The notes: generated from the letters alone by a model not told the origin. DNA of 64,000 nucleotides from Deltaproteobacteria bacterium (GCA_020056965.1 JAGVGT010000072.1:6197-70196); one strand, 5' to 3'; positions 1 through 29,372 are shown, counted from the stretch's first letter. Made by a program: numbers and translations.

Positions 1-765
1 CTTGCCACCCTTGGGGCTAACGTGGAAATGGTTCTCCAGAAACCAGCCCCTTCAGAGATGGCTTGGAAAAACGCCACTAGAAAGTTGGTGATGTTGGGTG
101 CAAAGGTTATTGTGGCTTATGGGTCCGAGACTGCCCTGGTAGTAATTAAGGAAAATGCCGAAGTGCCGGTGGTTTACGCAGCTGCTTATGCCCCCGAGAA
201 ATGCGGAATTACCGGTAAGGTCACCGGGATGGGGGCCACAGTGCCGATGGAGGGGTTGATCGACAACCTGAAGAAGATCTCTAATTTTTCCAAGCTGGGG
301 ATTCTTTATTCCAGTGATGAGATCGGTTCAGTCAAACAGATGGAGGCGGCGGAGGCCATTGCTTTGGTGAAGGGCGCCAAGGTCATCAGGATTGATACCA
401 AGGGTTCCGAAAACTATGACTTGGGTGGCGCCGATGCAGTGTTGTTCACTTCCTCGGCGTCCATAAATCAGAGTGAGAACCTCGAGGCCATTCTGAGTAA
501 AGCTCGCACTGGTAGGGTAGCGACGGCCTCGGTTTTCTGTGCATCTTGTCAGAATGGAGTTTTGATATCCCTTTCCGCTAACCCGATTCAGCAAGGGAAG
601 GGGGCGGCCCGAATGGTCGCGGAAATTCTAAAGGGCAGAAACCCTAAGGACATTCCCCCGGACAATGCCCCGGAGGTTGAGACAACGGTAAATTTGAAGG
701 AGGCCAAGGATCTTGGTTTCAGTATACCGTTTGAACTACTGGGTACCGCCAAGGTAGTGAAATAA
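1..765 (+). CDS. ABC-transporter periplasmic substrate-binding protein (ABC_sub_bind/BMP-like family), 5'-truncated by window edge
   Basis: The frame is open from nt 1 into ORF 22..765. The C-terminal pattern 'GRNPKDIPPDNAPEVETTVNLKEAKDLGFSIPFELLGTAKVV' is typical of this SBP family. Confidence 0.6.
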   Translation, partial: LATLGANVEMVLQKPAPSEMAWKNATRKLVMLGAKVIVAYGSETALVVIKENAEVPVVYAAAYAPEKCGITGKVTGMGATVPMEGLIDNLKKISNFSKLGILYSSDEIGSVKQMEAAEAIALVKGAKVIRIDTKGSENYDLGGADAVLFTSSASINQSENLEAILSKARTGRVATASVFCASCQNGVLISLSANPIQQGKGAARMVAEILKGRNPKDIPPDNAPEVETTVNLKEAKDLGFSIPFELLGTAKVVK

Positions 766-793
766 AATCGACATGAATTCAGGAGGAGTCAAC

Positions 794-1366
794 GTGAAAA
801 AAATATTCTTACTGACCACGATGATGCTGGTTTGGAGCGGCTCGGTTGTCGCTGGTGAACTGAAAGTCGCGGTCCCAGTTGATGAGTTTAAACAAATTAA
901 ATCACGGCTGGAGGCCCTGGAAAAAGAGAATAGCCAATTAAAGAAGGGTTCCGGCCCGGATGGGTCCATCATGGGCAGTCCTGGTAGCCCTGAGATGGAG
1001 GGGCGTTTGCAGGCGACGGAAAATGAAAACAGCCGACTCCGGCAGGAACTTAATGCCCTGAAGAGCCAGGAGCGCTCGACTTCATCGAATATGGAAATTC
1101 AGGCCAAGCTCGATACGGTTGAAAAAGAAAACCGTCAGCTTAAGGAAGCACAGGCTCGGCAAAGTGAGAAAAGCCCTGTTCTTGAAGATGCGAGTTTGGC
1201 TACCAAATTAAATGTCGTCGAAAATGAAAACAGCAAATTGCAGCAGGAAATTAAGGCGCTGAAGGATGGCGGTTTTGCAGCGGTTTTCGCGGAGAACAAA
1301 ATATCAGCACGTGAGTTATATTTTCTCGAGAGAAAAAAAGGAATCAACCACGCATTTAAGTTCTGA
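794..1366 (+). CDS. Secreted coiled-coil repeat protein (hypothetical)
   Basis: AGGAGG at 781-786 lies 7 nt before GTG 794. The N-terminus 'VKKIFLLTTMMLVWSGSVVAG' looks like a signal peptide. There are four heptad-like repeats built on 'E(K/N)EN(S/R)xL'. ATG 773 is an alternative start. Confidence 0.6.
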   Translation: MKKIFLLTTMMLVWSGSVVAGELKVAVPVDEFKQIKSRLEALEKENSQLKKGSGPDGSIMGSPGSPEMEGRLQATENENSRLRQELNALKSQERSTSSNMEIQAKLDTVEKENRQLKEAQARQSEKSPVLEDASLATKLNVVENENSKLQQEIKALKDGGFAAVFAENKISARELYFLERKKGINHAFKF

Positions 1367-1581
1367 TGTTGGTGCTCAGTCTGAGTTCGATGGTTGTTGT
1401 TTTGGCGGCTGTCTTTTTTGTGCGACGGTGATAGGTTGTTGTATTCTATTGTCGTGAAACTACTTGATCTTGTTTTTACAAGCGATTCTCAATGATCTAC
1501 TGAACCGAATGAAGTACTTGAGGAAAGAGTTGTCGGTATTTGACTTATAAGTAACCGCACTTTCCTTAAATCTATAGTCGC

Positions 1582-3603
1582 CTAGTTGCTTGCCAAATCC
1601 TTTAGGCTCAGTTCGGCAAAACTGTTGCGGAGTTTCGCTGAAGCCGCATAGTATTCCTTGGCTTTTCCAACATCCCTTGCGACGCCGGTGCCGCTTTCGT
1701 ATAGGTACCCCAGCAGGAAGGCGGCTAAACCGTGACCGTTGCGGGTGGCTTCTTCCCAAAGCCTGATCGTCTCAGGGTAATTTTTCTCGGTGCCTCTTCC
1801 GAGGCATTTCAGCAGACCCAGGCGGTAGCGCGAGTCATTGTTTCCTTCCTTGGCACCTTTGGCGTACCATTTGGCCGCCGAATCGATATCCTTCTTAACT
1901 CCCTCGCCATTTTCGTAAGATAGCCCAAGAAAGAAGTAGGTGCCGGTGTTGCCCTGTTCAGCTGCCTTACCAAGCCAGCTGACAGCTTCATTAAAGTTCT
2001 GCGTTACACCTTCTCCGGAGCGGAACATAATGGCAATTCTAGACTGGGCCAGAGTATCTCCGGATTGGGCACCCTTTAAATACCATTTTGCCGCCTCCTG
2101 GGGGTTCTTGCTGGTTCCCCGGCCCAAGTCGTAGAGCTGCGCCAACTGGTAATAAACCCGATTATCTCCTTTCTGGGCCAGTGGGTGAAGCCATTTCAAG
2201 GCTTCCGTGTAGTCTGGGGGGGTATCGTTGCCGGACGTAAGAATAGTTGCCAATTTGTATTGGGCATCTGAATTACCCTGTTTGGCGGCTTGCTGATAAT
2301 ATTTAATGGCGTCAGGGATTGATTTTGTGAAGCCTTTCCCGGAGGCATAACATTCGGCGGTTTTGAATTGGGCCTCGATCTGACCCTGATTGGCGGCGTT
2401 TTTATACCATTCACAAGCCTTGGCTTGGTTTATTGGCACCCCGACACCTTCTTCGTAAAGCTTGGCCAGACTCAACTGAGCCTGGAGATCGCCGGATTCG
2501 GCGGATTTAGACGCCAGACTCAATTTGGCTTGTGGATTGCCCTGGGCAGCGGCCAGGCCCCACAGCCGAAGGGCCTCGTCGGTGTTTTTTGTTACGCCAT
2601 CATCACCGGTGGAATATAGGGTGCCAAGTTCACACTGGGCCTCGTCGTTACCCTTTTCAGCGGCCTGTTTGAACCATTTGAGAGCATCATCCGGATTCTT
2701 GGGGACACCATCGCCGGTCTGGTACATTTTCCCCATCAGATAGGTCGCTTCCGAATCGCCGCTGGAAAGGGCTTTGCTGAACTCATATTGGCCATCGACA
2801 TTGCCTTTCCGGGCCGCCATTTGATAGTATTTTACGGCCCTGGCCGGGTCACGCTGGACATCTCGACCCTCCTCATAGCGTTTGCCCATCTGGTATTGGG
2901 CATTAGGGTCTCCAGACTCAGCCGATTTGATGAGCGAGCTGATCGCATCTCGGCCAGAAGAACCGTTCGGAGCGGCAGTTGGTGAAGCAATCGCGGTCTG
3001 AGTTGAAGTTGAAGGGGTGGCCGTTGGGGCCCCCGGAATGGTTTCAACAAAGACGTTAAATCTTTTGCCGAGGGTTTCTCGCGCTTTGGGGTGGCCTTGG
3101 GCCGCCGCCATCCGCAGAAGTTTTTCTGCCTCGATATTGTCCTGGGATACCCGATCGCCATTGGCATATAGAGTGCCCAAGCGAAACTGGGCTTCGGCAT
3201 GGCCGCTGGCGGCGGATTGTTTGAACCATTTGACCGCAATTGCCGGGTCTTTCTGAACACCGTCACCGCTTTGGTACATTTCGCCCATCAAGAAACTTGC
3301 TTCTGGGTGGCCGTTGGACAAGGCCTTGCCGAATTCGTACTGGGCCTCGATATTCCCCTGCCGAGCCGAGGCCCTGTATAACCTGATCGCCTTGGCAATG
3401 TCTGGTGAAACGCCTTTGCCTTCTTCGTAGATTTTCCCTAGTTCATATTGGGCGTTGGCGTCTCCATTGTCCGCCGCCCTAATAATTGTCTGAATTTGGT
3501 CAGCAGCCTGAATAAGGCTGGGGTGGAACAGCAGCATAAGCGTCATGCCCAGGCCGAGGACAACGGTCACAGGTAAGGATCTGGGGGCGGATATTCTTAG
3601 CAT
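1582..3603 (-). CDS. Sel1-like repeat (SLR, TPR-family) protein, secreted
   Basis: 673-aa ORF with an N-terminal hydrophobic signal. It has many iterations of 'A..WY.KAA.QG...AQ..LG..Y..G.GV..D', split by a Pro/Thr/Ser linker. Confidence 0.85.
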   Translation of the reverse strand: MLRISAPRSLPVTVVLGLGMTLMLLFHPSLIQAADQIQTIIRAADNGDANAQYELGKIYEEGKGVSPDIAKAIRLYRASARQGNIEAQYEFGKALSNGHPEASFLMGEMYQSGDGVQKDPAIAVKWFKQSAASGHAEAQFRLGTLYANGDRVSQDNIEAEKLLRMAAAQGHPKARETLGKRFNVFVETIPGAPTATPSTSTQTAIASPTAAPNGSSGRDAISSLIKSAESGDPNAQYQMGKRYEEGRDVQRDPARAVKYYQMAARKGNVDGQYEFSKALSSGDSEATYLMGKMYQTGDGVPKNPDDALKWFKQAAEKGNDEAQCELGTLYSTGDDGVTKNTDEALRLWGLAAAQGNPQAKLSLASKSAESGDLQAQLSLAKLYEEGVGVPINQAKACEWYKNAANQGQIEAQFKTAECYASGKGFTKSIPDAIKYYQQAAKQGNSDAQYKLATILTSGNDTPPDYTEALKWLHPLAQKGDNRVYYQLAQLYDLGRGTSKNPQEAAKWYLKGAQSGDTLAQSRIAIMFRSGEGVTQNFNEAVSWLGKAAEQGNTGTYFFLGLSYENGEGVKKDIDSAAKWYAKGAKEGNNDSRYRLGLLKCLGRGTEKNYPETIRLWEEATRNGHGLAAFLLGYLYESGTGVARDVGKAKEYYAASAKLRNSFAELSLKDLASN

Positions 3604-3941
3604 ACGTAGGTCTCTTAAGAAATCAGATAAATGAAAGAAATATTTAATAACATCGGAAAGTTAACAAATTCCATAAAAAATCATCAATCGAGTCTAATCA
3701 TCGGTGAACTTTAAGATTTCTACTAAAAAAGGAAGCTAAGAAGATAATTAATTATTCCCGGTAGATGGGATGTGGCAATAACATAACATAATAGTCTGTA
3801 ATTGAAGAGGGTTCTTGTGTGGGGAATGATGTTTTTTCGAGATTATTCTTGGCCGGGAGCAATCGGGCGCGGTTGCTTTTGGGATGCAAGAATAAGGGGC
3901 AAGGGTTATAATCGCCGGGCTGGTTTGCCGGGGAATAAAAT

Positions 3942-5015
3942 ATGAACGAAAGAAAAAAGACAAGACAGATTAAAGTCGGCGCGGTTCCAGTTGGGGGTGA
4001 TGCCCCGGTGGTGGTGCAGTCCATGACCAACACCGATACCCGCGACGTTGCGGCCACGGTGGCACAGGTCAGTCGTCTGGAGGCGGCGGGCTGCGAGATC
4101 ATTCGGGTTGCTGTGCTGGACCTGGAGGCGGCTTTGGCCATCCGGGCCATCCGTGCGCAGATTCGCATTCCCCTGATCGCTGATATCCATTTCGATTCCC
4201 GTCTGGCTGTGGCCGCCATGGAAAACGGCGCCCAGGGCATTCGCATTAACCCGGGTAATATTGGTGGTCCGGACAAGCTGGCCCGGGTGGTAGCTGCCGC
4301 CAAGCAACACTCGGTGCCGATTCGGGTCGGGGTTAATTCCGGGTCGGTGGAAAAGGATATTCTGGCCCGCCATGGCCACCCAACCCCGGCGGCCCTGGTC
4401 GAAAGCGGTCTGCGCAATATTCGGCGATTGGAGGAGTTAGACTTTTATGAAATCAAGGTATCGCTCAAGTCATCCGATGTCCTGACCACCATCGAGTCCT
4501 ATCGACTGCTGGCCGGCCAATGCGAGTATCCTCTGCATCTGGGGGTCACCGAGGCGGGAGGGCTGATCGCCGGTACGGTCAAGAGCAGCGTCGCTCTGGG
4601 TATACTGCTCTCCGAGGGGATCGGCGATACCCTGCGCATTTCGTTGACCCGTGACCCGGTCGAGGAGATTCGGGTCGCCTATGAACTGCTGCGTGCTCTG
4701 CGGATCAGAGAGCGTGGGCCGGAACTGATCTCCTGCCCAACCTGTGGCCGCTGCCAAGTCGATCTCTTCTCTCTGGCCGAAAAGGTCGAACAGTACGTCC
4801 AGAACATTGAGGTGCCCCTGAAGATCGCGGTGATGGGCTGCGTGGTCAACGGCCCTGGCGAGGCCAAGGAGGCTGACCTGGGCGTGGCCGGCGGCCACGG
4901 CGTGGGGATTATCTTCAAGAAGGGCAAGCTGTACAAGAAAGTTCCCGAGGCCGAGTTGCTGGCAACCTTTCTGGCCGAACTGGACCGGCTGGTCGAAGAA
5001 AAACGCCGGGGCTAG
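3942..5015 (+). CDS. ispG: 4-hydroxy-3-methylbut-2-en-1-yl diphosphate synthase IspG/GcpE
   Basis: 357 aa. Motifs seen: 'VGGDAPVVVQSMTNT', 'RINPGNIG' and the Fe-S motif 'SCPTCGRC'. Confidence 0.95.
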   Translation: MNERKKTRQIKVGAVPVGGDAPVVVQSMTNTDTRDVAATVAQVSRLEAAGCEIIRVAVLDLEAALAIRAIRAQIRIPLIADIHFDSRLAVAAMENGAQGIRINPGNIGGPDKLARVVAAAKQHSVPIRVGVNSGSVEKDILARHGHPTPAALVESGLRNIRRLEELDFYEIKVSLKSSDVLTTIESYRLLAGQCEYPLHLGVTEAGGLIAGTVKSSVALGILLSEGIGDTLRISLTRDPVEEIRVAYELLRALRIRERGPELISCPTCGRCQVDLFSLAEKVEQYVQNIEVPLKIAVMGCVVNGPGEAKEADLGVAGGHGVGIIFKKGKLYKKVPEAELLATFLAELDRLVEEKRRG

Positions 5016-5084
5016 GGCTTCTGGCGTTTCCGCGCTTCCCCTATTGGGAAGGATAAATAATCACAAAGATTTTTGGTGAGATGC

Positions 5085-6818
5085 ATGCGCTATTCGCAGA
5101 TGTTGTTGCCGACCCTGAAAGAAAATCCCTCTGAGGCGGAGGTGGCCAGTCATCGCCTGCTCCTGCGGGGCGGCTTCATTCGGAGATTGACCGCCGGAGT
5201 TTATGCCTATTTACCTTTGGGGCTGGCGACCATCCGTAAGGTCGAGCAAATCGTCCGGGAAGAGATGAACCGGGCCGGCGCCCAGGAGGTATTGTTGCCC
5301 ATTGTCCAGCCCGCCGATCTCTGGATCGAGTCGGGGCGCTGGACCAAATACGGGCCGGAGCTCCTGCGTTTCAAAGACCGCCATAATCGGGAAAGTTGTC
5401 TGGGGCCGACCCATGAAGAGGTCATCACCGATCTGGTCCGGATGAACGTCCATTCCTACCGAAATCTGCCTCTGAACCTCTACCAGATTCAGACCAAGTT
5501 CCGCGACGAGATCCGCCCCCGCTTCGGGCTGATGCGGGGCCGCGAGTTCATCATGAAGGATGGCTACAGTTTTGACCTGGCCGAGGAGGGCGCCAATCTC
5601 ACTTATCAGAAGATGTACGACGCCTACCACCGGATCTTCGCCCGCTGCGGCCTGGCCTTTCGGGCGGTGGAGGCGGACACCGGCACCATCGGCGGCAGTT
5701 TTTCCCATGAGTTCATGGTTCTGGCCGCCACCGGTGAGGATACCATCGTGATCTGCCGGGCTGCGGGCTGCGGTTATGCCGCCAACCTGGAAAAAGCCGC
5801 CGGACCGGCCTCGGAAGCGCCAAAGGAACCGGCAGATATGCTGCCCTTGGAGAAGGTGGAAACCCCCGGGCAGCGCAAGGTCGCGGCGGTGATCGCCTTT
5901 CTGGGAATTGCCCCAAGCCAGCTGGTCAAGACCATGGTCTACCTGGCCGATGGTAAACCGGTGGCAGTCTTGGTCCGCGGCGACCACGAGGTCCAGGATG
6001 TCAAGCTCAAGAATCTTCTGGGGGCGGTGGATGTGGTGTTGGCCGACGACCAGCAGATCTTCGAGGCCACCGGGGTTCCCAGTGGTTATCTGGGGCCGGT
6101 CGGGCTTAAAATTCTGGTGGTGGCCGACCGCGAGGTTGCGGTGATGCGCAATGTGGTGATCGGCGGTGGCGAGAAGAACTATCATTTCCGCAACGCCAAT
6201 CTGGAGCGCGATTTCCGGGTCGAGAAGTTCGCCGATCTTCGGCAGGTGACTGCTACCGACCGCTGTCCCTGTTGCGGCGGCGAACTGGAGTTTCCCAAAG
6301 GTATTGAGGTCGGCCACATCTTCAAGCTCGGTACCAGCTACAGTCAGGCCATGAAGGCCACCTACCTGGATAAGGACGGTCAGGAGAAATTCTTCGTCAT
6401 GGGCTGTTACGGCATTGGGGTGAGCCGGATCGTCGCCGCCGCCATCGAGCAGAACCACGACCAGGACGGCATCATCTTTCCCCTGCCTCTTGCCCCCTTC
6501 AAGGTGGTGGTGCTTAACCTCTCTCCCAATGATGAAAAGATCAGCGGGGCGGCCGAAGCGATCTATCAGGGGCTGCTGGCGGCCGGGACCGAGGTGCTGA
6601 TTGACGACCGCGATGAGCGGCCGGGCAGTAAATTTAAAGATGCCGATCTGGTGGGGATTCCCTTCCGGGTTACGGTCGGCAAGGGGTTCACCGCTGACGG
6701 CACCGTTGAAGTTCGCCGGCGCGCTGGTGCGACCGTTGCCGTTCCTCTGGCCGATACGGTGGCGCTGATCCTTGCGGAGATCGACCGCGAAATGTCGGCC
6801 TTGGCCGGCCAAAGTTGA
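5085..6818 (+). CDS. proS: Proline--tRNA ligase (bacterial type with editing insertion)
   Basis: 'MRYSQMLLPTLKENPSEAEVASHRLLLRGGFIR' is a canonical ProRS N-terminus. I prefer ATG 5085 over the GTG at 5073 in the ORF track. Confidence 0.95.
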   Translation: MRYSQMLLPTLKENPSEAEVASHRLLLRGGFIRRLTAGVYAYLPLGLATIRKVEQIVREEMNRAGAQEVLLPIVQPADLWIESGRWTKYGPELLRFKDRHNRESCLGPTHEEVITDLVRMNVHSYRNLPLNLYQIQTKFRDEIRPRFGLMRGREFIMKDGYSFDLAEEGANLTYQKMYDAYHRIFARCGLAFRAVEADTGTIGGSFSHEFMVLAATGEDTIVICRAAGCGYAANLEKAAGPASEAPKEPADMLPLEKVETPGQRKVAAVIAFLGIAPSQLVKTMVYLADGKPVAVLVRGDHEVQDVKLKNLLGAVDVVLADDQQIFEATGVPSGYLGPVGLKILVVADREVAVMRNVVIGGGEKNYHFRNANLERDFRVEKFADLRQVTATDRCPCCGGELEFPKGIEVGHIFKLGTSYSQAMKATYLDKDGQEKFFVMGCYGIGVSRIVAAAIEQNHDQDGIIFPLPLAPFKVVVLNLSPNDEKISGAAEAIYQGLLAAGTEVLIDDRDERPGSKFKDADLVGIPFRVTVGKGFTADGTVEVRRRAGATVAVPLADTVALILAEIDREMSALAGQS

Positions 6819-6836
6819 CCAGGGGGTTGCCCAATC

Positions 6837-9029
6837 GTGCCGGTTTGTGAAGAGTTAATCGAGAAGGCTGCGGTTTATCTACCCGAAGGAGATCTCGCCG
6901 TCCTGCGGGAGGCCTGTGCCTTTGCCGGGCGGATCTATACCGGGCGCCACCGTCTGTCCGGCATGCCCTACCTGGCCCATGCCCAGGCGGTGGCCGAAAT
7001 TCTGGCCAAATTGAAGCTGGACTTGCCAACCGTCACGGCCGGCCTGCTGCACGGCGCCCTGAAAGAACCGGCCTCGGTGCCGGAAGAGGAACTGGCCAAG
7101 AAGTTCGGGGCCGAAGTCACCACCATCGTGAAGGGTGTGACCAAGATCACCAGTGTTCACTTCGACAGTCGCCTGGCCTTCCAGGCCGAGAATATCCGTC
7201 GGATGTTTCTGGCCATGTCCGAAGATGTCCGGGTGTTGATCCTCAAACTGGCCGACCGACTGCATGACATGCAGTCCCTGCAGCCAGTGAGTCCGGAAAA
7301 GCAACAGGAATTTGCCCGCGAGACCATGGATCTCTACGCCCCGCTGGCCAGTCGTCTTGGGATTGACTGGGTCAAGCGGGAACTTGAGGACCTTTCATTT
7401 CGCTATCTTTATCCCGACGCCTATCTGGATCTGGCCGGCCGGATCAGCACCTCCCTGGGGGACCGCGAACGCTACGTCGAGGAGGTCAAGGAGATCCTTT
7501 CCGCCAAGCTTCGGGAACAGAACATCTCAGTGTTCCGCATTCTCGGCCGTCCCAAGCACCTGTATAGCATCTATAAAAAGCTTCAGGCCCAGAACATTCC
7601 CTTGGAAAAGGTCTACGACAAGGTGGCCTTCCGGATTATCCTCAAGTCGGTGCGCGAGTGTTACGAGGTGCTGGGACTGCTGCACGATCTTTGGCCCCCG
7701 GTTTCCGGCCGTTTCAAGGATTTTATCGGGACCCCCAAATCCAACCTGTATCAGTCGTTGCATACCACGGTGGTCGGTCCCTACGGTGAGTTTATGGAGG
7801 TCCAGATTCGCACCGAGGAAATGGACCGGATCGCCAACGATGGGATCGCCGCCCACTGGGCCTATAAGGAAGGCAAGACCATCACCAGCCGGGACGCCAA
7901 ACTTTTCCAGGGCTTGAAGCATCTGGTCCAGTCCCTGCAGGATCTTCAAGAGGTCCAGGACCCCGGGGAGTTCATGGAGGCGGTGGTGGATGAACTTCGG
8001 GAGGCGGAGGTTTACGCGCTGACCCCCACCGGAGAAGTCAAGGAGTTGCCCGGTGGCAGCACCCCTCTCGATTTCGCTTACGCCATTCATACTCAGGTTG
8101 GGGATCATTGCGCCGGTGCCAAGGTCAACGGCCGGATCGTCCCGCTTAAGCAGTTGTTGAGCAACGGCGATATGGTGGAGATCATTACCTCACCGACCCA
8201 GAGGCCGAACCGGGGCTGGTTGGCCATGGTCAAGACCAGTCGGGCTCGGGGGCGGATTCGGCACTGGCTTAAGAAGGACGAGTTGGAACGGGCCCTCAAG
8301 CTCGGCCGGGAAATCTGTGAGCGGGAACTGCACAAGCGTGAGCTGAGCCTGAAGAAGTTGACTAAAAGCGGCCATCTGCGGGAAACGCTCAAGGCCTTTG
8401 CGGTCAATAACCTTGACGAGTTGTTGCGGCAGGTTGGTTCAGGCAAGGTGACGGTAGAGGCCATTGCCGAAAAGATGCTGCCCGTCGAATTGCGGCGGGT
8501 TGAGCCGACGCTGCCGGCCGAAGAAGATGTGGCGGAATGGCGGGCCGAGACCAAGCAGAAGGTCTCGAAGGCGCCCCGGCAGTCCAGCGGGGGCGGGCCG
8601 GTTCTGGTCGATGGCTCGGATGATCTTCTGATCAGGATCAGCCGGTGCTGCACACCTCTGCCTGGCGATCCCATTGTCGGCTACATCTCGTCCGGTCGGG
8701 GGATTTCAGTCCACAAAAGGGGATGCCCAAACTATCTGGCCACCGATCCGGAGAGACGTATCGAGGTGGATTGGGCGTCCTCCTTGGCAGGGGCGGGGCA
8801 TCAGGCCCAGATCTTAGTGGTGGCACTTGACCAGAAAGGGCTCATTGCTGAGCTCGGCAGCCGGATCAGTTCGGCCGATGCCGACATTGTCAGCATGGCG
8901 GCCAGGACTTCCGTCGAGAATCTGGCTATTGTGAATCTGGTGTTGGGGGTGAAGAGTCTGGCCCACCTGGAGAAGGTGCTGCTGCAACTGCAACAGATCA
9001 ATGGGGTGTTGGAGGCCAGCCGCAAATAG
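6837..9029 (+). CDS. rel: Bifunctional (p)ppGpp synthetase/hydrolase, RelA/SpoT family
   Basis: 730 aa with a GTG start. It has an HD hydrolase region, the synthetase motif 'YQSLHTTV', and C-terminal TGS and ACT-like regions. Confidence 0.93.
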   Translation: MPVCEELIEKAAVYLPEGDLAVLREACAFAGRIYTGRHRLSGMPYLAHAQAVAEILAKLKLDLPTVTAGLLHGALKEPASVPEEELAKKFGAEVTTIVKGVTKITSVHFDSRLAFQAENIRRMFLAMSEDVRVLILKLADRLHDMQSLQPVSPEKQQEFARETMDLYAPLASRLGIDWVKRELEDLSFRYLYPDAYLDLAGRISTSLGDRERYVEEVKEILSAKLREQNISVFRILGRPKHLYSIYKKLQAQNIPLEKVYDKVAFRIILKSVRECYEVLGLLHDLWPPVSGRFKDFIGTPKSNLYQSLHTTVVGPYGEFMEVQIRTEEMDRIANDGIAAHWAYKEGKTITSRDAKLFQGLKHLVQSLQDLQEVQDPGEFMEAVVDELREAEVYALTPTGEVKELPGGSTPLDFAYAIHTQVGDHCAGAKVNGRIVPLKQLLSNGDMVEIITSPTQRPNRGWLAMVKTSRARGRIRHWLKKDELERALKLGREICERELHKRELSLKKLTKSGHLRETLKAFAVNNLDELLRQVGSGKVTVEAIAEKMLPVELRRVEPTLPAEEDVAEWRAETKQKVSKAPRQSSGGGPVLVDGSDDLLIRISRCCTPLPGDPIVGYISSGRGISVHKRGCPNYLATDPERRIEVDWASSLAGAGHQAQILVVALDQKGLIAELGSRISSADADIVSMAARTSVENLAIVNLVLGVKSLAHLEKVLLQLQQINGVLEASRK

Positions 9030-9071
9030 CGTGGGAATAAACCGAAAGAATGAAGGCAGGGTCACAAAAAA

Positions 9072-9106
9072 AAACGGGTACCAGCCGTTAAGCCGGTGCC
9101 CGTTTC
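9072..9106 (-). terminator. Rho-independent terminator for rpmB, possibly also serving rel
   Basis: Stem 'acgggtacc'/'ggtgcccgt'. An A9 run on the + strand gives a U-run after the stem on the minus strand. Confidence 0.7.
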
Positions 9107-9131
9107 TTGGGGTCTGAAAATTATTAAGTAA

Positions 9132-9341
9132 TCAGGCCTGCTTCGGATTGGCGACCGGTTTAACTACCGCGCCGGACCGGATACAGCGGGTGCAGACCTG
9201 CAGTTGCCGGTTGCCGGTGGGGCTTGCCACTCGGACGTTCTGCAGGTTCGGCAACCAGCGGCGCCTGGACTTATTGTGGGCGTGGCTGACGTTGTTGCCG
9301 GTGATCGGTTTCTTGCCGCAAACTTCACAAATATTAGCCAT
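9132..9341 (-). CDS. rpmB: 50S ribosomal protein L28
   Basis: '[34 protein letters not shown]' is the L28 signature. Confidence 0.95.
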
Positions 9342-9575
9342 GGTATTAACTCCTTGATCCTGTTTTTGAGAGGGGAACTTATAACGCGTCCGGACCAGGA
9401 TGGCAAGAATTTTGTCCGTACAACGGCGAGAATTTTTGAATCGGCTCCTTTGGTCAGTGGTGGCGCTCCTTCTGGGGTTCTAAATAATTGACACGGGGGG
9501 GAGGGAATGGTAGATTTCTCAACCATTTTAACTTGATAACGGTAGCCTTTCTGTCCCCCTCAACCAGAGTTGAAT

Positions 9576-10925
9576 ATGCAGAATAACAAGAACGAAATTT
9601 GGGCATTCCTGGCCTCGGTCAAACTGGCCCTGTTCACATTTTTCGCTTTGGCGATAACCTCAATCATTGGCACGGTTATCGAACAGGGTAAGGATATGGC
9701 TTACTATGTCGAGAGGTTCGGCCCTGGTACCGCCAAGTTTTTTCAGATTCTCAATGTACCGAATATGTATAGTTCTTGGTGGTTCATTTCCATGCTGGTT
9801 CTGTTTAGTTTGAATCTGTTGGTCTGCACCATCGACCGCTTTCCCAATATCTGGCGGTTGGTCAACTTGGATAATCTGGCTCTGGAGCTGGACCGGATTC
9901 TCAAGATGCCAAAGCGGCAGGTCTTTAAGTCGCAATTGTCGGCGGCGGAGTTGCATCAGGAAATCGAGAAGGCTCTGCCCGGTCTGTCCTGGAAATTCGA
10001 ATCGGCGGAGCTGGATGGCGGCAGACTATTTGCGGCCCAAAAAGGCAATTGGACTAGACTCGGGGTGATCATGGTCCATGTCAGCATCCTGGTCATTTTT
10101 GCCGGGGCCATAATCGGCGCCGCCTTCGGGTACAAGGGGTTCGTGATGATCCCTGAGGGTAGGTCGGTCAAGCAGATATACGCCTACGACGCCAATCGCA
10201 CCGAGATACCCTTGGACTTTTCGTTGCGTTGCGATCGCTTCGTGCTGGAGCTTTACGATACCGGTGCACCTAAGGAGTTTTTGTCGGATCTGGTGGTGGT
10301 CAAGGACGGGCAAGAGGTCCTCAAGCAGAGCATTGAGGTCAATGACCCCTTGCATTACGGTGGCCTTACCTTTTATCAATCGAGCTATGAGGCCTACGAC
10401 GAAGTGGTGCTGGAAATAGAGAACGGCACCAGCAAAGCAAAGAAAAAATTTATCGTTGGGATTGGCGAGCAGGTGGTCTGGCCGGAAGAACACCTGACGT
10501 TAGGGGTCGTCAATCGCATGGGCTCGAGAATGGCGGCTTTTGCTCGGGGCCAGGTTTGGCTGAAATCCGGGGAGGCTGAGCCGGTGCAGTTCTGGGTCAA
10601 CAGCGGCCAGTCGGCACTTATCGAGCGCCCTACTGGTAACTACGTGCTTACCTTGCGCCCGCTTTATGCCACCGGTCTGCAGGTTACCAGGGATCCAGGG
10701 GTTTGGTATGTATACATAGGCTGTATGTTGATGTTGGTGGGTCTGTATGTCGCCTTTTTTCTGTCGCATCGGAAGATTTGGCTCTACATCTCCGGAAGTG
10801 GCTCCGGCAGCACTCTGCACGTAGCCGGTGCCAGCAACAAGAACAAGCTCGGTTTTGAAAACGATTTCGCGGCCCTGATAGATAATTTGGAACAGAGCGG
10901 CACCCTGAAACTAACAAAGGAATAA
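9576..10925 (+). CDS. ccsB: Cytochrome c biogenesis protein ResB/CcsB (system II)
   Basis: About 450 aa. ResB-type N-terminal TM 'FLASVKLALFTFFALAITSIIGTVIEQG', a large periplasmic loop and a C-terminal TM. It sits immediately upstream of ccsA. I prefer ATG 9576 over TTG 9570. Confidence 0.88.
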   Translation: MQNNKNEIWAFLASVKLALFTFFALAITSIIGTVIEQGKDMAYYVERFGPGTAKFFQILNVPNMYSSWWFISMLVLFSLNLLVCTIDRFPNIWRLVNLDNLALELDRILKMPKRQVFKSQLSAAELHQEIEKALPGLSWKFESAELDGGRLFAAQKGNWTRLGVIMVHVSILVIFAGAIIGAAFGYKGFVMIPEGRSVKQIYAYDANRTEIPLDFSLRCDRFVLELYDTGAPKEFLSDLVVVKDGQEVLKQSIEVNDPLHYGGLTFYQSSYEAYDEVVLEIENGTSKAKKKFIVGIGEQVVWPEEHLTLGVVNRMGSRMAAFARGQVWLKSGEAEPVQFWVNSGQSALIERPTGNYVLTLRPLYATGLQVTRDPGVWYVYIGCMLMLVGLYVAFFLSHRKIWLYISGSGSGSTLHVAGASNKNKLGFENDFAALIDNLEQSGTLKLTKE

Positions 10926-10928
10926 GCC

Positions 10929-11777
10929 ATGACCAGTTCACTGCTTTTCGGCATTATCACGTTCACGTATCTGGCCGCCTCCTTTCTTTACATCGGCGGG
11001 TTTATTTTTCGTTCTCAGAAGGCGGGGTTGGTGGCATCGGTGCTCACCGGCCTCTCTTTTCTGGTCCAAACCGGTGCCATCGCATTGCGCTGGAAAGAGT
11101 CGTATTCGATGGGGTACGGGCATGCTCCTATGTCTAATATGTATGAGTCGCTGGTCTTTTTCTCTTGGGCGATCGTCATCTTCTACATGTTTATCGAGTA
11201 TAAGTTCAAAAATCGGCTGCTCGGGGCCTTTGCGGTGCCTTTTGCCTTCCTCAGTATGGCTTTGGCCTCCTTGACCGGCGACGAAATCAAGCCGTTGATC
11301 CCAGCCCTGCAGAGCAACTGGCTGATCGCCCACGTCATGACCTGTTTTGTCGGTTATGCTGCCTTTGCCGTGGCCTGCGGCATGGGGATCATGTACTTGA
11401 TCAAATCAACCTACGACGAAAAAGCCGACCGAAAAGGGGCGAGTCTACTGGCCACGCTGCCGCCTTTGAGCGTAATTGACGATATCACCCATAAGACTAT
11501 CGTCTTTGGTTTTCTCTGGTTGTCGGCGGGGATCATTACCGGGGCGATCTGGGCCAATTCCGCCTGGGGGACTTACTGGAGTTGGGACCCCAAGGAAACT
11601 TGGTCGTTGATTACCTGGTTCCTATATGCCGCAGCCCTTCATGCCCGCTTTACCAAGGGCTGGGGGGGGAAAAGGATCGCCTGGTTGGCGATTATCGGTT
11701 TTCTAGCTGTGGTCTTCACTTACTATGGCGTAAATTATCTCCTGTCCGGGCTGCACAGTTACGGATCGAGCGGGTGA
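10929..11777 (+). CDS. ccsA: Cytochrome c-type biogenesis protein CcsA/ResC (heme handling)
   Basis: Polytopic membrane protein with the WWD-type motif 'WANSAWGTYWSWDPKETW'. Confidence 0.9.
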   Translation: MTSSLLFGIITFTYLAASFLYIGGFIFRSQKAGLVASVLTGLSFLVQTGAIALRWKESYSMGYGHAPMSNMYESLVFFSWAIVIFYMFIEYKFKNRLLGAFAVPFAFLSMALASLTGDEIKPLIPALQSNWLIAHVMTCFVGYAAFAVACGMGIMYLIKSTYDEKADRKGASLLATLPPLSVIDDITHKTIVFGFLWLSAGIITGAIWANSAWGTYWSWDPKETWSLITWFLYAAALHARFTKGWGGKRIAWLAIIGFLAVVFTYYGVNYLLSGLHSYGSSG

Positions 11778-11967
11778 TTCGAGCGGTGATTAAGGGTATG
11801 TTGGGTTCCGCCTTCGCCTTGGCTGGTGATAGCGAATAAGAGGGTTTTTCTTTGAATGTTGGGTTTTTTCCTGCTTGACATTGCCGACTTATCCAGAATA
11901 TATGTTTGTCGCTCAGGTTTAATATTAGCTGTAAAATTCAGAATTATTAACCTTAAGGAGATTGGAA

Positions 11968-12330
11968 ATGTTCAAGAAGATTGTTCTTTGCGCAGCAGCG
12001 TTGGCCATGGTCTGTGGAGTAGCGGTAACTAGTGCCTCCGCTGCTGGTCCGGAAACTATTTCCTTCGATACCGCCAAGAAAGGCGGCACCAAGGTGACTT
12101 TCGGCCACAAGGCCCATCAGGCCATGATGGAGTGTAAGGAGTGTCATCACACCAAGGCTGCCGACGGTAAGCAGGGACCTTACGCCGCCGGCAAGGAAGC
12201 CAAGTGCGCCAGCTGCCACGAAGTGGGTAAGCCCAGCGACAACATCCACAAGAACTGCAAGGGTTGTCATCAGGCCGGACTGAACGGCAAGAAAGGCCCG
12301 ACCGGTTGTAACGATTGCCACAAGAAGTAA
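11968..12330 (+). CDS. Periplasmic tetraheme cytochrome c3/c7 family (PpcA-like)
   Basis: AAGGAG RBS at 11955-11960 and a signal peptide. Four CXXCH motifs (CKECH, CASCH, CKGCH, CNDCH). 'VTFGHKAHQ' and 'KKGPTGCNDCHKK' resemble Geobacter PpcA as I recall it. Confidence 0.85.
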   Translation: MFKKIVLCAAALAMVCGVAVTSASAAGPETISFDTAKKGGTKVTFGHKAHQAMMECKECHHTKAADGKQGPYAAGKEAKCASCHEVGKPSDNIHKNCKGCHQAGLNGKKGPTGCNDCHKK

Positions 12331-12356
12331 TTATCCGGACTTTGGTCAGGATTGGG

Positions 12357-12386
12357 AAAGGCTGCCCGAAAGGGCAGCCTTTTTTG
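12357..12386 (+). terminator. Rho-independent terminator
   Basis: 'aaggctgccc gaaa gggcagcctt' followed by a T5 run. Confidence 0.8.
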
Positions 12387-12468
12387 TTGGCGCCTTACGC
12401 CATTCCGCAATCGGGCGTGCGGCCTAATGGTGCTCGGCTTACTTTTTTTCGGCCTGTGGGCGTAAACA

Positions 12469-14511
12469 TTGCAAAAACCACTCGGTAACAATAACAACCA
12501 GGTTTCTTCACCCGGTGTCTGGAGCCACGTCCAGCTGTCTTTCCTGCTCTTGGGGATTGCGGTTGTGGCGACATTTTGTATAGCTTGTCTGATTTATCTT
12601 CTGACCGTTCTTAATCTGCCGAATATCTCCGCCCTCACGTCCTATCAGCCTCCGGAGGCCTCTCTGGTTATCGATTCCAGGGGGCAAGAACTGACCAGAT
12701 TCTATCGGGAAAATCGGCGGGTTATTAAACTTTCTGATATGCCTTCGCTTTTACCCAAGGCCTTCGTGGCCGCTGAGGATGGCAGATTTTACCAGCACGG
12801 CGGGGTGGATGGCTGGTCGGTGCTGCGGGCCGTTTTCAATAACCTCCGTTCTGGGCGGCGTTCCCAGGGAGGCAGCACCATCACCCAACAGGTGGCCCGC
12901 GCCCTTCTGCTGTCGCCGGAAAAAACTTATATCCGCAAACTGCGCGAGGCCGTCCTGGCTTACCGGATTGATCGGCTGCTTACCAAAGATCAGATCCTCC
13001 ACCTCTACCTGAATCAGATTTACCTTGGAGAGGGGGCCTACGGTGTTGAGGCGGCGGCCCGGGCCTATTTCGGTAAGCCGGCCAGGCAGCTTGATCTGGC
13101 CGAAATTAGCTTGCTGGCCGGTTTACCCCAGGCCCCCAGTCGTTATTCGCCCCTAGTCGATTTCAAGAGCGCTAAGACACGTCAGCGCTATGTCCTGAAC
13201 CGCATGGCGGAAGACGGATATGTGACCCCGGAAAAGGCCAGAGTCGCTTATGGGCAGGAGGTCCGCGTACACAGGGAACCTCCGCCCGACCCGAAGGAGG
13301 GGTATTTTTTTGAGGCGGTCCGCCAGTACGCGGAAGAGCGCTATGGTACGGAACGGTTGCTGGCTGGCGGCCTGACCATCCGGGTGACTATGGACCGGGA
13401 GTTACAGGCCGCAGCGGCTTTGGCTGTCGAGCGTGGGATTGCGGCCTGGCGGCAGCGTCATCCCAGGAAGAGCGATTATCCCCAAGGCGCTTTGGTGGCT
13501 CTGGAGGTGAAAAGTGGTCGGATTTTGGCCCTGGTCGGTGGCCGCGATTTTCGGACTAGCCAGTTTAATCGCGCGCTCCAGTCGCGGCGGCAACCGGGAT
13601 CGGTTTTCAAACCCATCATATATGCAGCGGCCTTGCAGGGTTCCTATACCCCGGCCAGCCTGCTCAATGATCAACCAATGGCCTTGCCCGGTGCGGCCGG
13701 GGAAGTCTGGCGACCCAGTAATTATGACGGCAAGTTCATGGGCCCGATTACCCTGCGGACCGGCCTGGTTCATTCCCGCAATATTGTTACCATAAAACTT
13801 TTGCAGGCGGTTGGCATCCGGCCGGTCGTAAAACTGTCTGAAAATCTGGGCATCAGCGCCCCCCTGGCTGAAAATCTTTCGTTGGCCTTGGGGACCTCCG
13901 GTGTGTCGTTGCTGGAAATGACCAGCGCCTACGAGGTCTTTGCCGATGGCGGGACCTATCTGGCACCATCGATGGTCGAGAGCATCAGCGACCGGCAGGG
14001 CCGAATCCTCGAAAAATCGGAGGCCGGTCATTCGCGAAGGGTTTTGCCGGCCAGTACGGCTTATCAGGTGACCAACCTCCTTCAGGGGGTGATCAAAGAG
14101 GGTACCGGCCGTCAGGCGGATGGTCTGGAAGGTGAAAGCGCCGGTAAGACCGGGACCACCGACAACAGCACTGATGCCTGGTTTATCGGCTATACCCCCG
14201 AATTGGTGACCGGGGTCTGGCTGGGCTTTGATCGCGGCGCCCATCTGGGCGAGGATGAAACTGGCGGTCGGGCGGCGGCGCCGGTTTGGTTGGATTTCAT
14301 GCGGGAGGCGATGCGGATTCGGCCGCCGGCGGTTTTGAATTTCCCGGTTCCAGAGGATGTGGTTCTCATGGCAGTGGATCAGGAAGGCGACAATATCAGG
14401 GACGGGGACGATTCCTCGAAGCTGCTTACCGCCTTTGCCCGCGAGCAGGAGCCGCTCCCCGGTAAGTCCGGCCTATTGAAAAACCTGTGGAATAAGCTGT
14501 GGGGGAAATAA
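12469..14511 (+). CDS. mrcA: Penicillin-binding protein 1A (glycosyltransferase + transpeptidase)
   Basis: GT51 motifs 'AAEDGRFYQHGGVD' and 'GGSTITQQ', and the transpeptidase motif 'PGSVFKP'. The start is uncertain (TTG 12469). Confidence 0.9.
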   Translation: MQKPLGNNNNQVSSPGVWSHVQLSFLLLGIAVVATFCIACLIYLLTVLNLPNISALTSYQPPEASLVIDSRGQELTRFYRENRRVIKLSDMPSLLPKAFVAAEDGRFYQHGGVDGWSVLRAVFNNLRSGRRSQGGSTITQQVARALLLSPEKTYIRKLREAVLAYRIDRLLTKDQILHLYLNQIYLGEGAYGVEAAARAYFGKPARQLDLAEISLLAGLPQAPSRYSPLVDFKSAKTRQRYVLNRMAEDGYVTPEKARVAYGQEVRVHREPPPDPKEGYFFEAVRQYAEERYGTERLLAGGLTIRVTMDRELQAAAALAVERGIAAWRQRHPRKSDYPQGALVALEVKSGRILALVGGRDFRTSQFNRALQSRRQPGSVFKPIIYAAALQGSYTPASLLNDQPMALPGAAGEVWRPSNYDGKFMGPITLRTGLVHSRNIVTIKLLQAVGIRPVVKLSENLGISAPLAENLSLALGTSGVSLLEMTSAYEVFADGGTYLAPSMVESISDRQGRILEKSEAGHSRRVLPASTAYQVTNLLQGVIKEGTGRQADGLEGESAGKTGTTDNSTDAWFIGYTPELVTGVWLGFDRGAHLGEDETGGRAAAPVWLDFMREAMRIRPPAVLNFPVPEDVVLMAVDQEGDNIRDGDDSSKLLTAFAREQEPLPGKSGLLKNLWNKLWGK

Positions 14512-22334: not shown

Positions 22335-22410
22335 GCCCTCGTAGCTCAGGGGATAGAGCACAGGATTCCTAATCCTGGAGTCGTAGGTTCGATTCCTACC
22401 GGGGGCACCA
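22335..22410 (+). tRNA. tRNA-Arg (anticodon CCT)
   Basis: Folded by hand. Acceptor GCCCTCG/CGGGGGC, D arm GCTC-AGGGGATA-GAGC, anticodon stem CAGGA/TCCTG with loop TTCCTAA, T arm GTAGG-TTCGATT-CCTAC, and an encoded CCA. Confidence 0.92.
22366..22410. repeat. attL-like direct repeat (3' 45 nt of tRNA-Arg)
   Basis: Identical to 26889-26933: 'ttcctaatcctggagtcgtaggttcgattcctaccgggggcacca'. Confidence 0.9.
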
Positions 22411-26888: not shown

Positions 26889-26933
26889 TTCCTAATCCTG
26901 GAGTCGTAGGTTCGATTCCTACCGGGGGCACCA
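26889..26933. repeat. attR-like direct repeat (copy of the tRNA-Arg 3' 45 nt)
   Basis: Perfect copy of 22366-22410. It has no matching tRNA 5' half upstream, so it is not a functional tRNA. Confidence 0.9.
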
Positions 26934-27122
26934 AGCGAAAATGTCTGTGGCTGGCGTCGGCGCCGATTGGGCTGGATACTTTACAGTGATTGTTTCTCTG
27001 TCGGATTTCTTTGTTTTAAAATGCCGGGAAATTGATTAGAAACTTAGCAGTTCGGTTGTGCTGGCCGGTTGAACTAGGGCGCCATTTGGTCGGTTCGGTT
27101 TGATTTTCTCGGGGGAGAAACG

Positions 27123-28088
27123 GTGAAACACTATAGTCTACTGGGACTCGTGGTTGTTGTGGGGGTGATGCTACTGGTTCCCCGTCTGGTCTATGCCCAC
27201 AGCGCAACGGGCCCTTGTGTCGATTGTCACACCATGCACAACAGCCAGAATGGTATCATGGAGGATAGTAACGGGCCGCAGGAGAATCTGCTGAAATTAA
27301 GTTGCATCGGTTGCCACGCCCGGACCTTTAATGATTCTACTGGTCGGGCTTCTTCCGCTGGCGGACCGGCTGCCCCACAAGTCGGGCCGTTGGCTGTCAA
27401 CGGAAGTTATCAGCTTTCCGGCGGATACTTTAGCACGACAGCCAATGCAACTACTCATAACGTGGCCGATATTCCGGGTACTGCACCCGACTCGCTAATA
27501 ACGTCTAACAGTGCTCCGGGCGGAACATTTGCCTTGCAAGACGGCGCTAAGCCGAAGTTGCGCTGCAATAGCTGTCACGATTCGGCCATTCGCCATGCCG
27601 CCGCTGGTTCTGAGCGCTTCGGCACAGCCGCTAGTTCATACCGCATGCTGCACGGCACCACGGCCCCCCTGTATGTGAAAGGGACAGGGGCGGCTGATTT
27701 TGAGGCCGGAGCTACGCAGAACCTCTACGATGCCCTCTCCATCAATCGTTTTTGCGCCCTCTGTCATGGCCTTTTTCATAGTCTGACTAACACCGACAGT
27801 ATCGGTGATGGCAACGGGGCCTGGGTACGGCACCCGACCGATGTTTCCACCAGCGATATTATCAACGGCCCTTCGCCCAACTATGAAGGGGGCGATAAGG
27901 TGGTCCCGCTCGGTGACGCTGGGGCTGTTGCGGCGGGGCACACCAATCAGGTGATGTGTCTCTCCTGCCATCGGGCGCATGGGAATGCCAACTCCGACAT
28001 GCTGCGGTTCAATTATAACGTTACAGGCAATCTGGCCGGTGATGTTGCTGTCTCGCAGGGGTGTGAGACCTGTCACGGCGCGAAATAA
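27123..28088 (+). CDS. OmcS-like hexaheme c-type cytochrome (secreted)
   Basis: GTG start with a GGGGGAG RBS, and a signal peptide ending 'VYA'. Six CXXCH motifs (CVDCH, CIGCH, CNSCH, CALCH, CLSCH, CETCH). 'CVDCHTMHNS', 'APGGTF', 'CLSCHRAHG..DMLRFN' and the terminal 'CETCHGAK' parallel G. sulfurreducens OmcS as I recall it. Confidence 0.75.
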   Translation: MKHYSLLGLVVVVGVMLLVPRLVYAHSATGPCVDCHTMHNSQNGIMEDSNGPQENLLKLSCIGCHARTFNDSTGRASSAGGPAAPQVGPLAVNGSYQLSGGYFSTTANATTHNVADIPGTAPDSLITSNSAPGGTFALQDGAKPKLRCNSCHDSAIRHAAAGSERFGTAASSYRMLHGTTAPLYVKGTGAADFEAGATQNLYDALSINRFCALCHGLFHSLTNTDSIGDGNGAWVRHPTDVSTSDIINGPSPNYEGGDKVVPLGDAGAVAAGHTNQVMCLSCHRAHGNANSDMLRFNYNVTGNLAGDVAVSQGCETCHGAK

Positions 28089-28162: not shown

Positions 28163-28231
28163 TATGCTATCGGCCATTCTCGTAGCGCCGCCTTCTCCTA
28201 GTCTCAAGGCAATTGGTTGGGGAGATCAATC

Positions 28232-28618
28232 ATGGCTCTATTCGACATGTCAGAGAAGCGGGATCGAACCAGAATCCCGGTTGACGCCAAAGTGATTCTC
28301 CACGCCGAAAACAAGGCTTTTTTCCTTGACGGTACCACCAGGGACGTGAGCATGAAGGGGCTTTTCGCCCGGAGTGATTTCGGGTTTCCGGTCGGGACCA
28401 AGTGCCAGATTGAGATCGTCCTGACCGGCCGTTCCTCGGAGTTGACCATCAAGCTGGGCGGCACCATTGTCCGGCGAGAAAAAGGGGGCTGCGGGGTTTT
28501 GTTTGAGGACGACCTGGAATGGTGGCCGGTATTTGCCATGCATCTTGCCAGTCACGAAAGTCATGGACGGGACTGGAAGTTTCTCGAGACCGGTCTGTCG
28601 GAACTGGATGACGACTGA
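28232..28618 (+). CDS. PilZ domain protein (c-di-GMP binding)
   Basis: 'KRDRTRIP' (RxxxR) and 'DVSMKG' (DxSxxG). I prefer ATG 28232, which has a GGGGAG RBS. Confidence 0.8.
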   Translation: MALFDMSEKRDRTRIPVDAKVILHAENKAFFLDGTTRDVSMKGLFARSDFGFPVGTKCQIEIVLTGRSSELTIKLGGTIVRREKGGCGVLFEDDLEWWPVFAMHLASHESHGRDWKFLETGLSELDDD

Positions 28619-28883: not shown

Positions 28884-29093
28884 TTACATCCCGCTGACGG
28901 CGCTGAACCACCCTTTGATCAGTCCGATGGGGCTCCCAGAGCCCAGCATAGCGCTGGCCAGGCAAGCAACCGCCCACAGCCCAACCAGGGCCGAAGCCGC
29001 ACCCATGGTGATGATGCTTCCTCTCGATACCGTGTCGATGGCCGCTTTGGAGGATTCCTGGGTTTGTGTCTGGGATTTGCTGGAGGTTGCCAT
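28884..29093 (-). CDS. Small single-TM protein, paralog 1 (hypothetical)
   Basis: 69 aa, with an AGGAG RBS 7 nt upstream. Shares the hydrophobic core 'G.WA.ACLA' with the next gene. Confidence 0.6.
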   Translation of the reverse strand: MATSSKSQTQTQESSKAAIDTVSRGSIITMGAASALVGLWAVACLASAMLGSGSPIGLIKGWFSAVSGM

Positions 29094-29135: not shown

Positions 29136-29372
29136 TTAGCGGCCGATAATAGCTGCGGCCAGTTGTCTGATCATGCTTAACGGCCCATCCTGGAAGAAGG
29201 TGTTGGCCAGACAGGCCAGCGCCCAAAATCCTGCAAAAAAGGCGGTTGCTCCAATTATGAACAGGGTGAACTGGTTTACGGTCTCGTTGTTACTACTGGT
29301 GTCCTGGTAAGCCTGCCAGGCGCCTCTTCTCTTCACCCGGGTCAGGGCGGTTTCTTTTTCGTATTCCCGCAT
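29136..29372 (-). CDS. Small single-TM protein, paralog 2 (hypothetical)
   Basis: 78 aa from ATG 29372 (the ORF track extends to TTG 29441). The core 'GATAFFAGFWALACLANTFFQDGP' aligns with paralog 1. Confidence 0.5.
   Translation of the reverse strand: MREYEKETALTRVKRRGAWQAYQDTSSNNETVNQFTLFIIGATAFFAGFWALACLANTFFQDGPLSMIRQLAAAIIGR

Follow-up and report, generated by a model that had tools for sequence, protein, structure and literature searches.

OmcS of Geobacter sulfurreducens (GSU2504; structures 6EF8 and 6NEF) is a cytochrome for which filament formation is proven. All 12 of its axial heme ligands are histidines, of which 11 belong to the subunit that holds the heme while the remaining one, serving heme 5, is supplied by a neighbouring subunit, and its hemes are stacked in motif order (Filman et al., PMC6584659; also PMC9473688). 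In OmcE-type cytochromes (7TFS and 9YUQ), a histidine of the neighbouring subunit completes the coordination of an interfacial heme (PMC9473688); OmcS and OmcE are described in the literature as having no sequence similarity. A filament structure has been solved for only one protein of the OmcS family, and wire-forming homologues are not reliably told apart from the others (PMC12977616). Here we describe an OmcS-like gene at positions 27123-28088 (+) of a 64,000-nucleotide (nt) stretch from a Deltaproteobacteria bacterium (GCA_020056965.1, JAGVGT010000072.1:6197-70196), which as a whole is called the window below. The best overall explanation, to which we assign a probability of roughly 0.55, is that its product is an exported bis-His hexaheme cytochrome of the OmcS superfamily that would assemble head to tail through a conserved histidine, His39.

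OmcS-like proteins have been described from several groups of bacteria. Those of the Desulfurivibrionaceae make up a clade sister to OmcS, are extracellular and have heme sites aligned to those of OmcS (PMC12545173). In Desulfurivibrio alkaliphilus, DA_402, DA_756 and DA_765 are OmcS-like cytochromes (Nature 2025, PMC12545173), and DA_402 is predicted to form a filament and was induced over 100-fold in cells respiring iron oxide, a process coupled to sulfide oxidation (PMC12545173). Filaments have also been proposed for OmcS-like genes of Desulfobulbia, Thermodesulfobacteria and syntrophic sulfate reducers, including the oetABI/omcX cassette (Murali et al., PLoS Biol 2023, PMC10553843), and an eight-gene block of Geobacter, GSU2500-2493, has been tied to OmcS maturation and secretion (PMC12977616). 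With these OmcS-like proteins published (PMC12545173, PMC10553843, PMC12977616), the kind of protein is already known, and the gene described here is an ordinary member of that group. It is best explained as a member of a compact subclade of the 'OmcS-like' proteins common in Desulfobulbales and Desulfurivibrionaceae, the latter being the likely family of the host genome.

The gene is an intact open reading frame (ORF) that starts with GTG and codes for a 321-amino-acid (aa) protein, with a Shine-Dalgarno-like GGGGGAG (27111-27117, +) ending 5 nt upstream of the start codon. The NCBI gene call is also 321 aa, and homologues of 313-334 aa span the entire protein. The N-terminus, MKHYSLLGLVVVVGVMLLVPRLVYA|HS, fits a type-I Sec signal with cleavage after VYA (residues 1-25, 27123-27197, +); its n, h and c regions were judged by eye, and the aligned N-termini of homologues close in A-x-A/H-S, in line with the predicted site. 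The mature cytochrome would comprise 296 aa (27198-28088 with the stop codon, +), as delimited by the ORF, the profile and the structure match. The original prediction had described a secreted 321-aa protein with six CXXCH motifs, a description that holds, and the sequence blocks it quoted are all present: HSATGPCVDCHTMHNS (residues 26-41), APGGTF...CNSCHD, RHP (236-238), CLSCHRAHGNANSDMLRFN and the C-terminal CETCHGAK. The IMG gene call for the same gene is 284 aa long and begins at the internal Met38, so that the signal peptide and the heme-1 motif are lost (27123-27233).

Three lines of comparison together establish homology to OmcS. In a phmmer search of PDB chains at the default cut-off (E 0.001), OmcS (6EF8/6NEF) was the sole match (E 5e-4), with collinear N- and C-terminal stretches. 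A profile built from 53 homologues matched OmcS at E 8.7e-24, with profile positions 30-288 falling on OmcS 8-349. Finally, an AlphaFold2 model of the mature protein based on a 117-sequence alignment (predicted local distance difference test (pLDDT) 78.3, predicted template modelling score (pTM) 0.82) had 6EF8_A as its only significant Foldseek match in the PDB (E 3.3e-6, probability 1.00), with ~22% identity over the structural alignment. An earlier model, made from the 53-sequence alignment with the signal peptide kept (pLDDT 65.5), had no Foldseek match in the PDB, and Pfam and NCBIfam scans gave generic multiheme matches (Cytochrome_C7, Paired_CXXCH_1) and no OmcS-specific family. The parallel to OmcS drawn in the original prediction, for which an alignment had been proposed as the check, is thus borne out by significant matches, and we consider it nearly certain that the protein is a hexaheme cytochrome of the OmcS superfamily. 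Similarity to OmcE-type proteins is of another order: the family profile matched them weakly (9YUQ, E 3.6e-5; 7TFS, E 2.2e-4) and over the heme-4 to heme-5 stretch only, matches that may be driven by the heme motifs, and the comparison of the second model with 7TFS in Foldseek was insignificant (E 8.2). OmcE-type proteins bind four hemes, whereas the window protein has motifs for six, and we do not place it among them.

Exactly six CXXCH motifs (C32, C61, C148, C211, C279 and C314) account for all 12 cysteines of the protein and occur in the same order as in OmcS, collinear with its C9, C47, C140, C239 and C328 by alignment and with C400 by position (OmcS histidines are numbered here from the residues in the HMMER alignment output). 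All of the following features lie on the plus strand. The heme-1 motif C32-V-D-C35-H36 and the adjoining T-M-H39 (27216-27239) align to OmcS C9..H13..H16, and the invariant heme-2 motif C61-I-G-C64-H65 (27303-27317) aligns to C47..H51. The heme-3 motif C148-N-S-C151-H152, with His158 (27564-27596), aligns to C140..H144; the invariant H158 is probably the counterpart of OmcS H147, offset by three residues. Heme 4 (C211-A-L-C214-H215, with His219; 27753-27779) corresponds to C239..H243 and H247, and heme 5 (C279-L-S-C282-H283, with His286; 27957-27980) to C328..H332 and H335. The heme-6 motif, C314-E-T-C317-H318 (28062-28076), is matched by position to C400..H404; just as heme 1 lies near the N-terminus in both proteins, the heme-6 histidine lies three residues from the C-terminus in both. 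Two further invariant residues are predicted distal ligands, His112 in 'HNV' (27456-27458), aligned to OmcS H110, and the histidine of R236-H237-P238 (27828-27836), aligned to the R-H257-P of OmcS.

Conservation is complete or at least 90% in alignments of 53 and 117 sequences for 12 histidines (H36, H39, H65, H112, H152, H158, H215, H219, H237, H283, H286 and H318), six of which (H39, H112, H158, H219, H237 and H286) lie outside the motifs. Their OmcS partners are, in order, H13, H16, H51, H110, H144, H147, H243, H247, H257, H332, H335 and H404, with 11 of the 12 paired by alignment and one by position; the remaining OmcS histidines 53, 63, 139 and 309 are without a conserved counterpart in the family. 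Conservation of motifs and histidines across these homologues means that the six-motif pattern is not due to chance, and the pattern suggests that all six hemes would be bis-His ligated. Family members have the third motif either as CXXCH or as a longer C-x5-CH, for example CAGTSGCH, which is why ~45% of sampled members have only five canonical motifs.

His39 deserves particular attention. It is the counterpart of OmcS His16, which we take to be the trans ligand of heme 5 in the next subunit. The histidine of the OmcS heme-5 motif, CLSCH, counts as residue 332, which fits heme 5 as the recipient of that ligand, and both His16 and His332 are among the 12 histidines matched in the window protein. 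The original prediction held that the OmcS His16 counterpart is kept in its 'TMH' sequence and is mature His14; His39 is indeed aligned to His16 and invariant in 117 sequences, and it becomes mature His14 with cleavage after VYA.

The window protein reaches this ligand set with a much shorter chain, its mature length being 296 aa against 407 aa in OmcS. The difference of 111 aa agrees with the ~100 aa originally estimated and consists of loop residues, with no ligand lost. From heme 1 to heme 2 the spacing is 29 residues against 38 in OmcS (-9), and from heme 2 to heme 3 it is 87 against 93 (-6). The main losses lie between hemes 3 and 4 (63 against 99, -36), hemes 4 and 5 (68 against 89, -21) and hemes 5 and 6 (35 against 72, -37). 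Measured from heme 1 to the end of the protein, the core is 294 aa here and ~403 aa in OmcS, with a median of 328 aa in 228 sampled family members. In a FastTree phylogeny the protein fell in an 18-row clade (support 99) nested in a compact clade of 44 rows (support 99) with cores of 269-345 aa, where its neighbours are proteins from Desulfurivibrionaceae and Desulfobulbia metagenome-assembled genomes (MAGs); OmcS is a long branch outside this clade. As the compact clade is large and has shorter members, compactness is a property of the clade. The suggestion that this protein is a 'minimal' variant was accordingly rejected, given the cores of 269-273 aa within the clade and the modules of ~255 aa in fusion proteins.

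The family is broad. A word-index search returned 2,023 relatives, and an exhaustive profile search returned 2,273 clusters (50% identity) at E <= 1e-3 and 528 at E <= 1e-30. Among species-representative genomes, 490 of 598 candidate stretches code for relatives, which were found in Thermodesulfobacteriota, Nitrospirota, Spirochaetota and Aquificota. When the window's own genome and 40 relatives of the same order were considered, copies were present in 33 of the 41, with up to 14 matches each.

Two patterns within the family bear on assembly. Among 117 relatives, the most conserved 12-residue blocks are VMCLSCHRAHGN around heme 5 (0.86) and CVDCHTMHNSQN covering heme 1 and His39 (0.85), with the next-best block at no more than 0.68 and a mean of 0.47; ligation of a neighbour's heme 5 by His39 would require these two blocks to come into contact. 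Natural tandem fusions, met in the exhaustive profile search, provide the second pattern. In the 841-aa protein P0160, module 1 finishes where residue 321 of the window protein aligns and module 2 starts, with no linker, at the equivalent of mature residue 1; of the two, only module 2, which has a partner upstream of it, retains the CHTMH histidine. Larger fusions, P0179 (1880 aa) and P0256 (1937 aa), have 42 CXXCH motifs each, arranged in at least four modules of ~255 aa, each with a histidine three residues past the heme-1 motif. All three resemble an OmcS-type wire in covalent form, and the conservation and fusion patterns are suggestive, being what head-to-tail packing predicts.

We propose the following model. 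As in OmcS, the six hemes would line up in motif order as one linear chain. His39, placed three residues past the heme-1 ligand, would be out of reach of heme 5 in its own chain and, for that reason, would complete heme 5 of the neighbouring subunit. Head-to-tail contacts between subunits would place heme 6 of each one against heme 1 of its successor and yield a polymer, or at least an oligomer, through which electrons could travel past the inner membrane. Extracellular electron transfer is its likely function, with iron oxides as one example of an acceptor. Judging from the sequence comparisons, ligation of a neighbour's heme together with oligomerization is probable, and filament formation by the window protein is plausible.

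Gene context in other genomes was also compared. In at least seven relatives, compact homologues 41-46% identical to the window protein head a conserved block of ~18 kb (for example L095 1133-19520; also L096, L097, L098, L099, L100 and L102), which includes cytochromes with 14, 26, 16 and 7 hemes, a second OmcS-like gene, a 710-aa barrel-like protein, lipoproteins, a peptidyl-prolyl isomerase (PPIase) and an NHL propeller. This block resembles the Geobacter GSU2500-2493 (GSU2501-2493) block, an equivalence that we draw from the published description: as in the GSU2501-type arrangement, the relatives of the window protein head or accompany genes for a PPIase, an NHL propeller, a large barrel-like protein and a 26-heme cytochrome comparable to GSU2495 (mBio 2026, PMC12977616). 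Compact relatives are found in large multiheme blocks, as are the genes of the oetABI/omcX cassette, whereas the window gene is solitary at a tRNA-Arg/PilZ/queA locus. Counted in favour of the proposed model are the blocks headed by compact relatives, the lipoprotein multiheme cytochromes and four secretins of the window's genome, and the iron-oxide induction and predicted polymerization of a Desulfurivibrio OmcS-like protein (PMC12545173).

Several observations weigh against the proposed assembly. That His39 would bind a neighbour's heme rather than one of its own chain is inferred by homology, and filaments are proven for OmcS and plausible for the window protein. Heme 6 is paired with OmcS C400..H404 by position, with no significant alignment. 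The fold match to 6EF8 is moderate (template modelling score 0.46/0.36), a level to be expected when a coil-rich protein is modelled heme-free. Among the four Geobacter paralogues only OmcS is a proven wire, and the authors caution that homology alone mispredicts nanowires (PMC12977616). The cytochrome gene has no omcT-like neighbour, and the window's genome (89.9% complete) yielded nothing specific when searched for the non-heme block members with tblastn and profile hidden Markov models; a query with the barrel-like protein was likewise negative. At this completeness, absence of a GSU2500-2493-like block is not certain. Finally, in a genome of the same genus (G001, 97% complete), tRNA-Arg(CCT) lies ~300 bp from PilZ with no cytochrome or detectable remnant between them (L110 3398-4384). 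The cytochrome gene was either lost from, or never present in, this sister species, and its absence from the same site means that the gene is dispensable. Because the companion block was not found and the gene is dispensable, we regard a secreted extracellular nanowire in the host organism as a tentative proposal, with the odds somewhat against it.

Some of the same evidence would suit a non-filamentous electron carrier, that is, a periplasmic or surface monomer or small oligomer shuttling electrons between cytochromes, in which conservation of His39 would reflect the ancestral fold or a dimer contact and not long polymers. Such a carrier would account for a solitary gene lacking porin, propeller and PPIase partners in a genome with no detected companion block, for the missing gene in the same-genus genome, for the single proven wire among the Geobacter paralogues (PMC12977616) and for a Sec signal with no lipobox. 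It is harder to reconcile with six hemes and exactly 12 conserved histidines: should the hemes be ordered as in OmcS, one of these histidines could not reach its partner heme inside a single chain, and heme 5 of a monomer would be five-coordinate (PMC6584659). Nor does it readily explain why conservation in the family peaks in the two blocks that meet at the OmcS interface, or why tandem fusions mimic head-to-tail packing. We consider this the main alternative but the less likely one, and retain head-to-tail assembly through His39 as the preferred reading.

The window's genome codes for other multiheme cytochromes, with ~30 ORFs having at least two CXXCH motifs, lipoprotein forms among them. 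Lipoprotein-type multiheme cytochromes with 13, 9 and 9 hemes are located on contigs C82, C41 and C68, the last of these just upstream of the window, and contig C22 has a giant ORF (234-12869, +) whose 4,211 aa include 21 CXXCH motifs. Four secretins are also coded, which permits secretion and is no proof of it. One of the cytochromes is a longer OmcS-like paralogue of ~413 aa on contig C52 (L002 1489-2751, -), with six CXXCH motifs and one CX3CH. It is 36% identical to the window protein, shares the CHTMHNSQNG and VMCLSCHRAH blocks and groups in the tree with proteins from Desulfobacterales and Desulfurivibrio MAGs. DA_402, with seven motifs (CX2-5CH), is closer to this paralogue than to the 321-aa protein, and the DA_402 group probably comes from the same bacterial family as the window's genome.

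The presence of the C52 paralogue raises the prospect of a mixed polymer, in which the window protein would co-assemble with, cap or prime filaments of the longer protein. The contact blocks of the two are nearly identical, GPCANCHTMHNSQNG and VMCLSCHRAH...ALRFNY in the C52 protein against GPCVDCHTMHNSQNG and VMCLSCHRAH...MLRFNY here, but these blocks are conserved family-wide, so the similarity is not specific to this pair; moreover, the two genes are unlinked and their products only 36% identical, and we know of no mixed OmcS-type filament. We judge this arrangement highly improbable. Less improbable, yet still doubtful, is that the 296-residue subunit forms wires without a maturation and secretion block, whether by assembling on its own in the periplasm or at the cell surface or by co-assembling with the longer paralogue. 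If that were true, the compact clade would be a naturally minimal, self-sufficient nanowire scaffold, with the tandem fusions (up to 42 hemes per chain) as its covalent counterparts.

The immediate surroundings of the gene include a mobile islet. A 4.5-kb AbiE islet is inserted into the tRNA in the window, with the tRNA-Arg gene at 22335-22410 and, at the other end of the islet, an attR site (26889-26933, +) that repeats the 3' 45 nt of tRNA-Arg(CCT) with a 100% match. The attR lies outside the cytochrome unit, which the insertion has left 190 bp past it. Downstream of the cytochrome is a gene for a 133-aa PilZ-domain protein (28217-28618, +; Pfam PF07238, E 1.2e-8), found at the same position in L105 and L106. 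The original prediction had placed the cytochrome directly beside a tRNA islet and before a PilZ gene; the position and the PilZ assignment hold, and the supposed several tRNAs are one tRNA gene and a repeat of its 3' end. Farther along are two single-pass membrane proteins of 69 and 78 aa (28884-29093 and 29136-29372, both -) that belong to no Pfam family. They keep their position and size by the cytochrome/PilZ pair in three other lineages, and the same-genus genome without the cytochrome has a 78-aa ORF of matching size at the same position.

The order tRNA-Arg(CCT), cytochrome, PilZ, 69-aa protein, 78-aa protein, DUF2065 and queA recurs in three other lineages, in which PilZ is missing once (L103) and the tRNA-Arg is confirmed once (L106). 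The three cytochromes at this locus (P0006, P0009 and P0016) are 56-60% identical to the window protein, and one syntenic orthologue comes from a 'Desulfobulbaceae bacterium' MAG. Two possible connections to the neighbourhood were rejected. Horizontal arrival with the tRNA islet is contradicted by the G+C content of the cytochrome gene (0.56-0.60), which is like that of the host and unlike that of the islet, and by the occurrence of the tRNA-Arg/cytochrome/PilZ order elsewhere without an islet. A functional link to PilZ is contradicted by the missing PilZ in the syntenic L103 and by its retention in the same-genus genome without the cytochrome, which means that PilZ does not depend on the cytochrome. 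The gene is therefore an old resident of the locus, yet a dispensable one. A chance ORF or decaying remnant by the tRNA integration site, as its place 190 bp from the att repeat and its absence from the sister species might suggest, has a negligible probability and is effectively refuted by the conservation pattern, given an intact frame with a ribosome-binding site and host-like rather than islet-like G+C, orthologues at 56-68% identity that keep all 12 cysteines and 12 histidines, and three orthologues (56-60%) at the same locus in other lineages.

With all 24 heme-binding residues retained and about one-quarter of the chain gone, the compact clade shows which parts of OmcS are dispensable. 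It offers a practical start for expression, structural work and the engineering of smaller heme wires. A solitary gene with no detected companion block, together with conserved interface blocks and natural fusions, yields testable predictions about assembly. For the sulfur bacteria of the Desulfurivibrionaceae type, the protein adds to the evidence of electron-export hardware.

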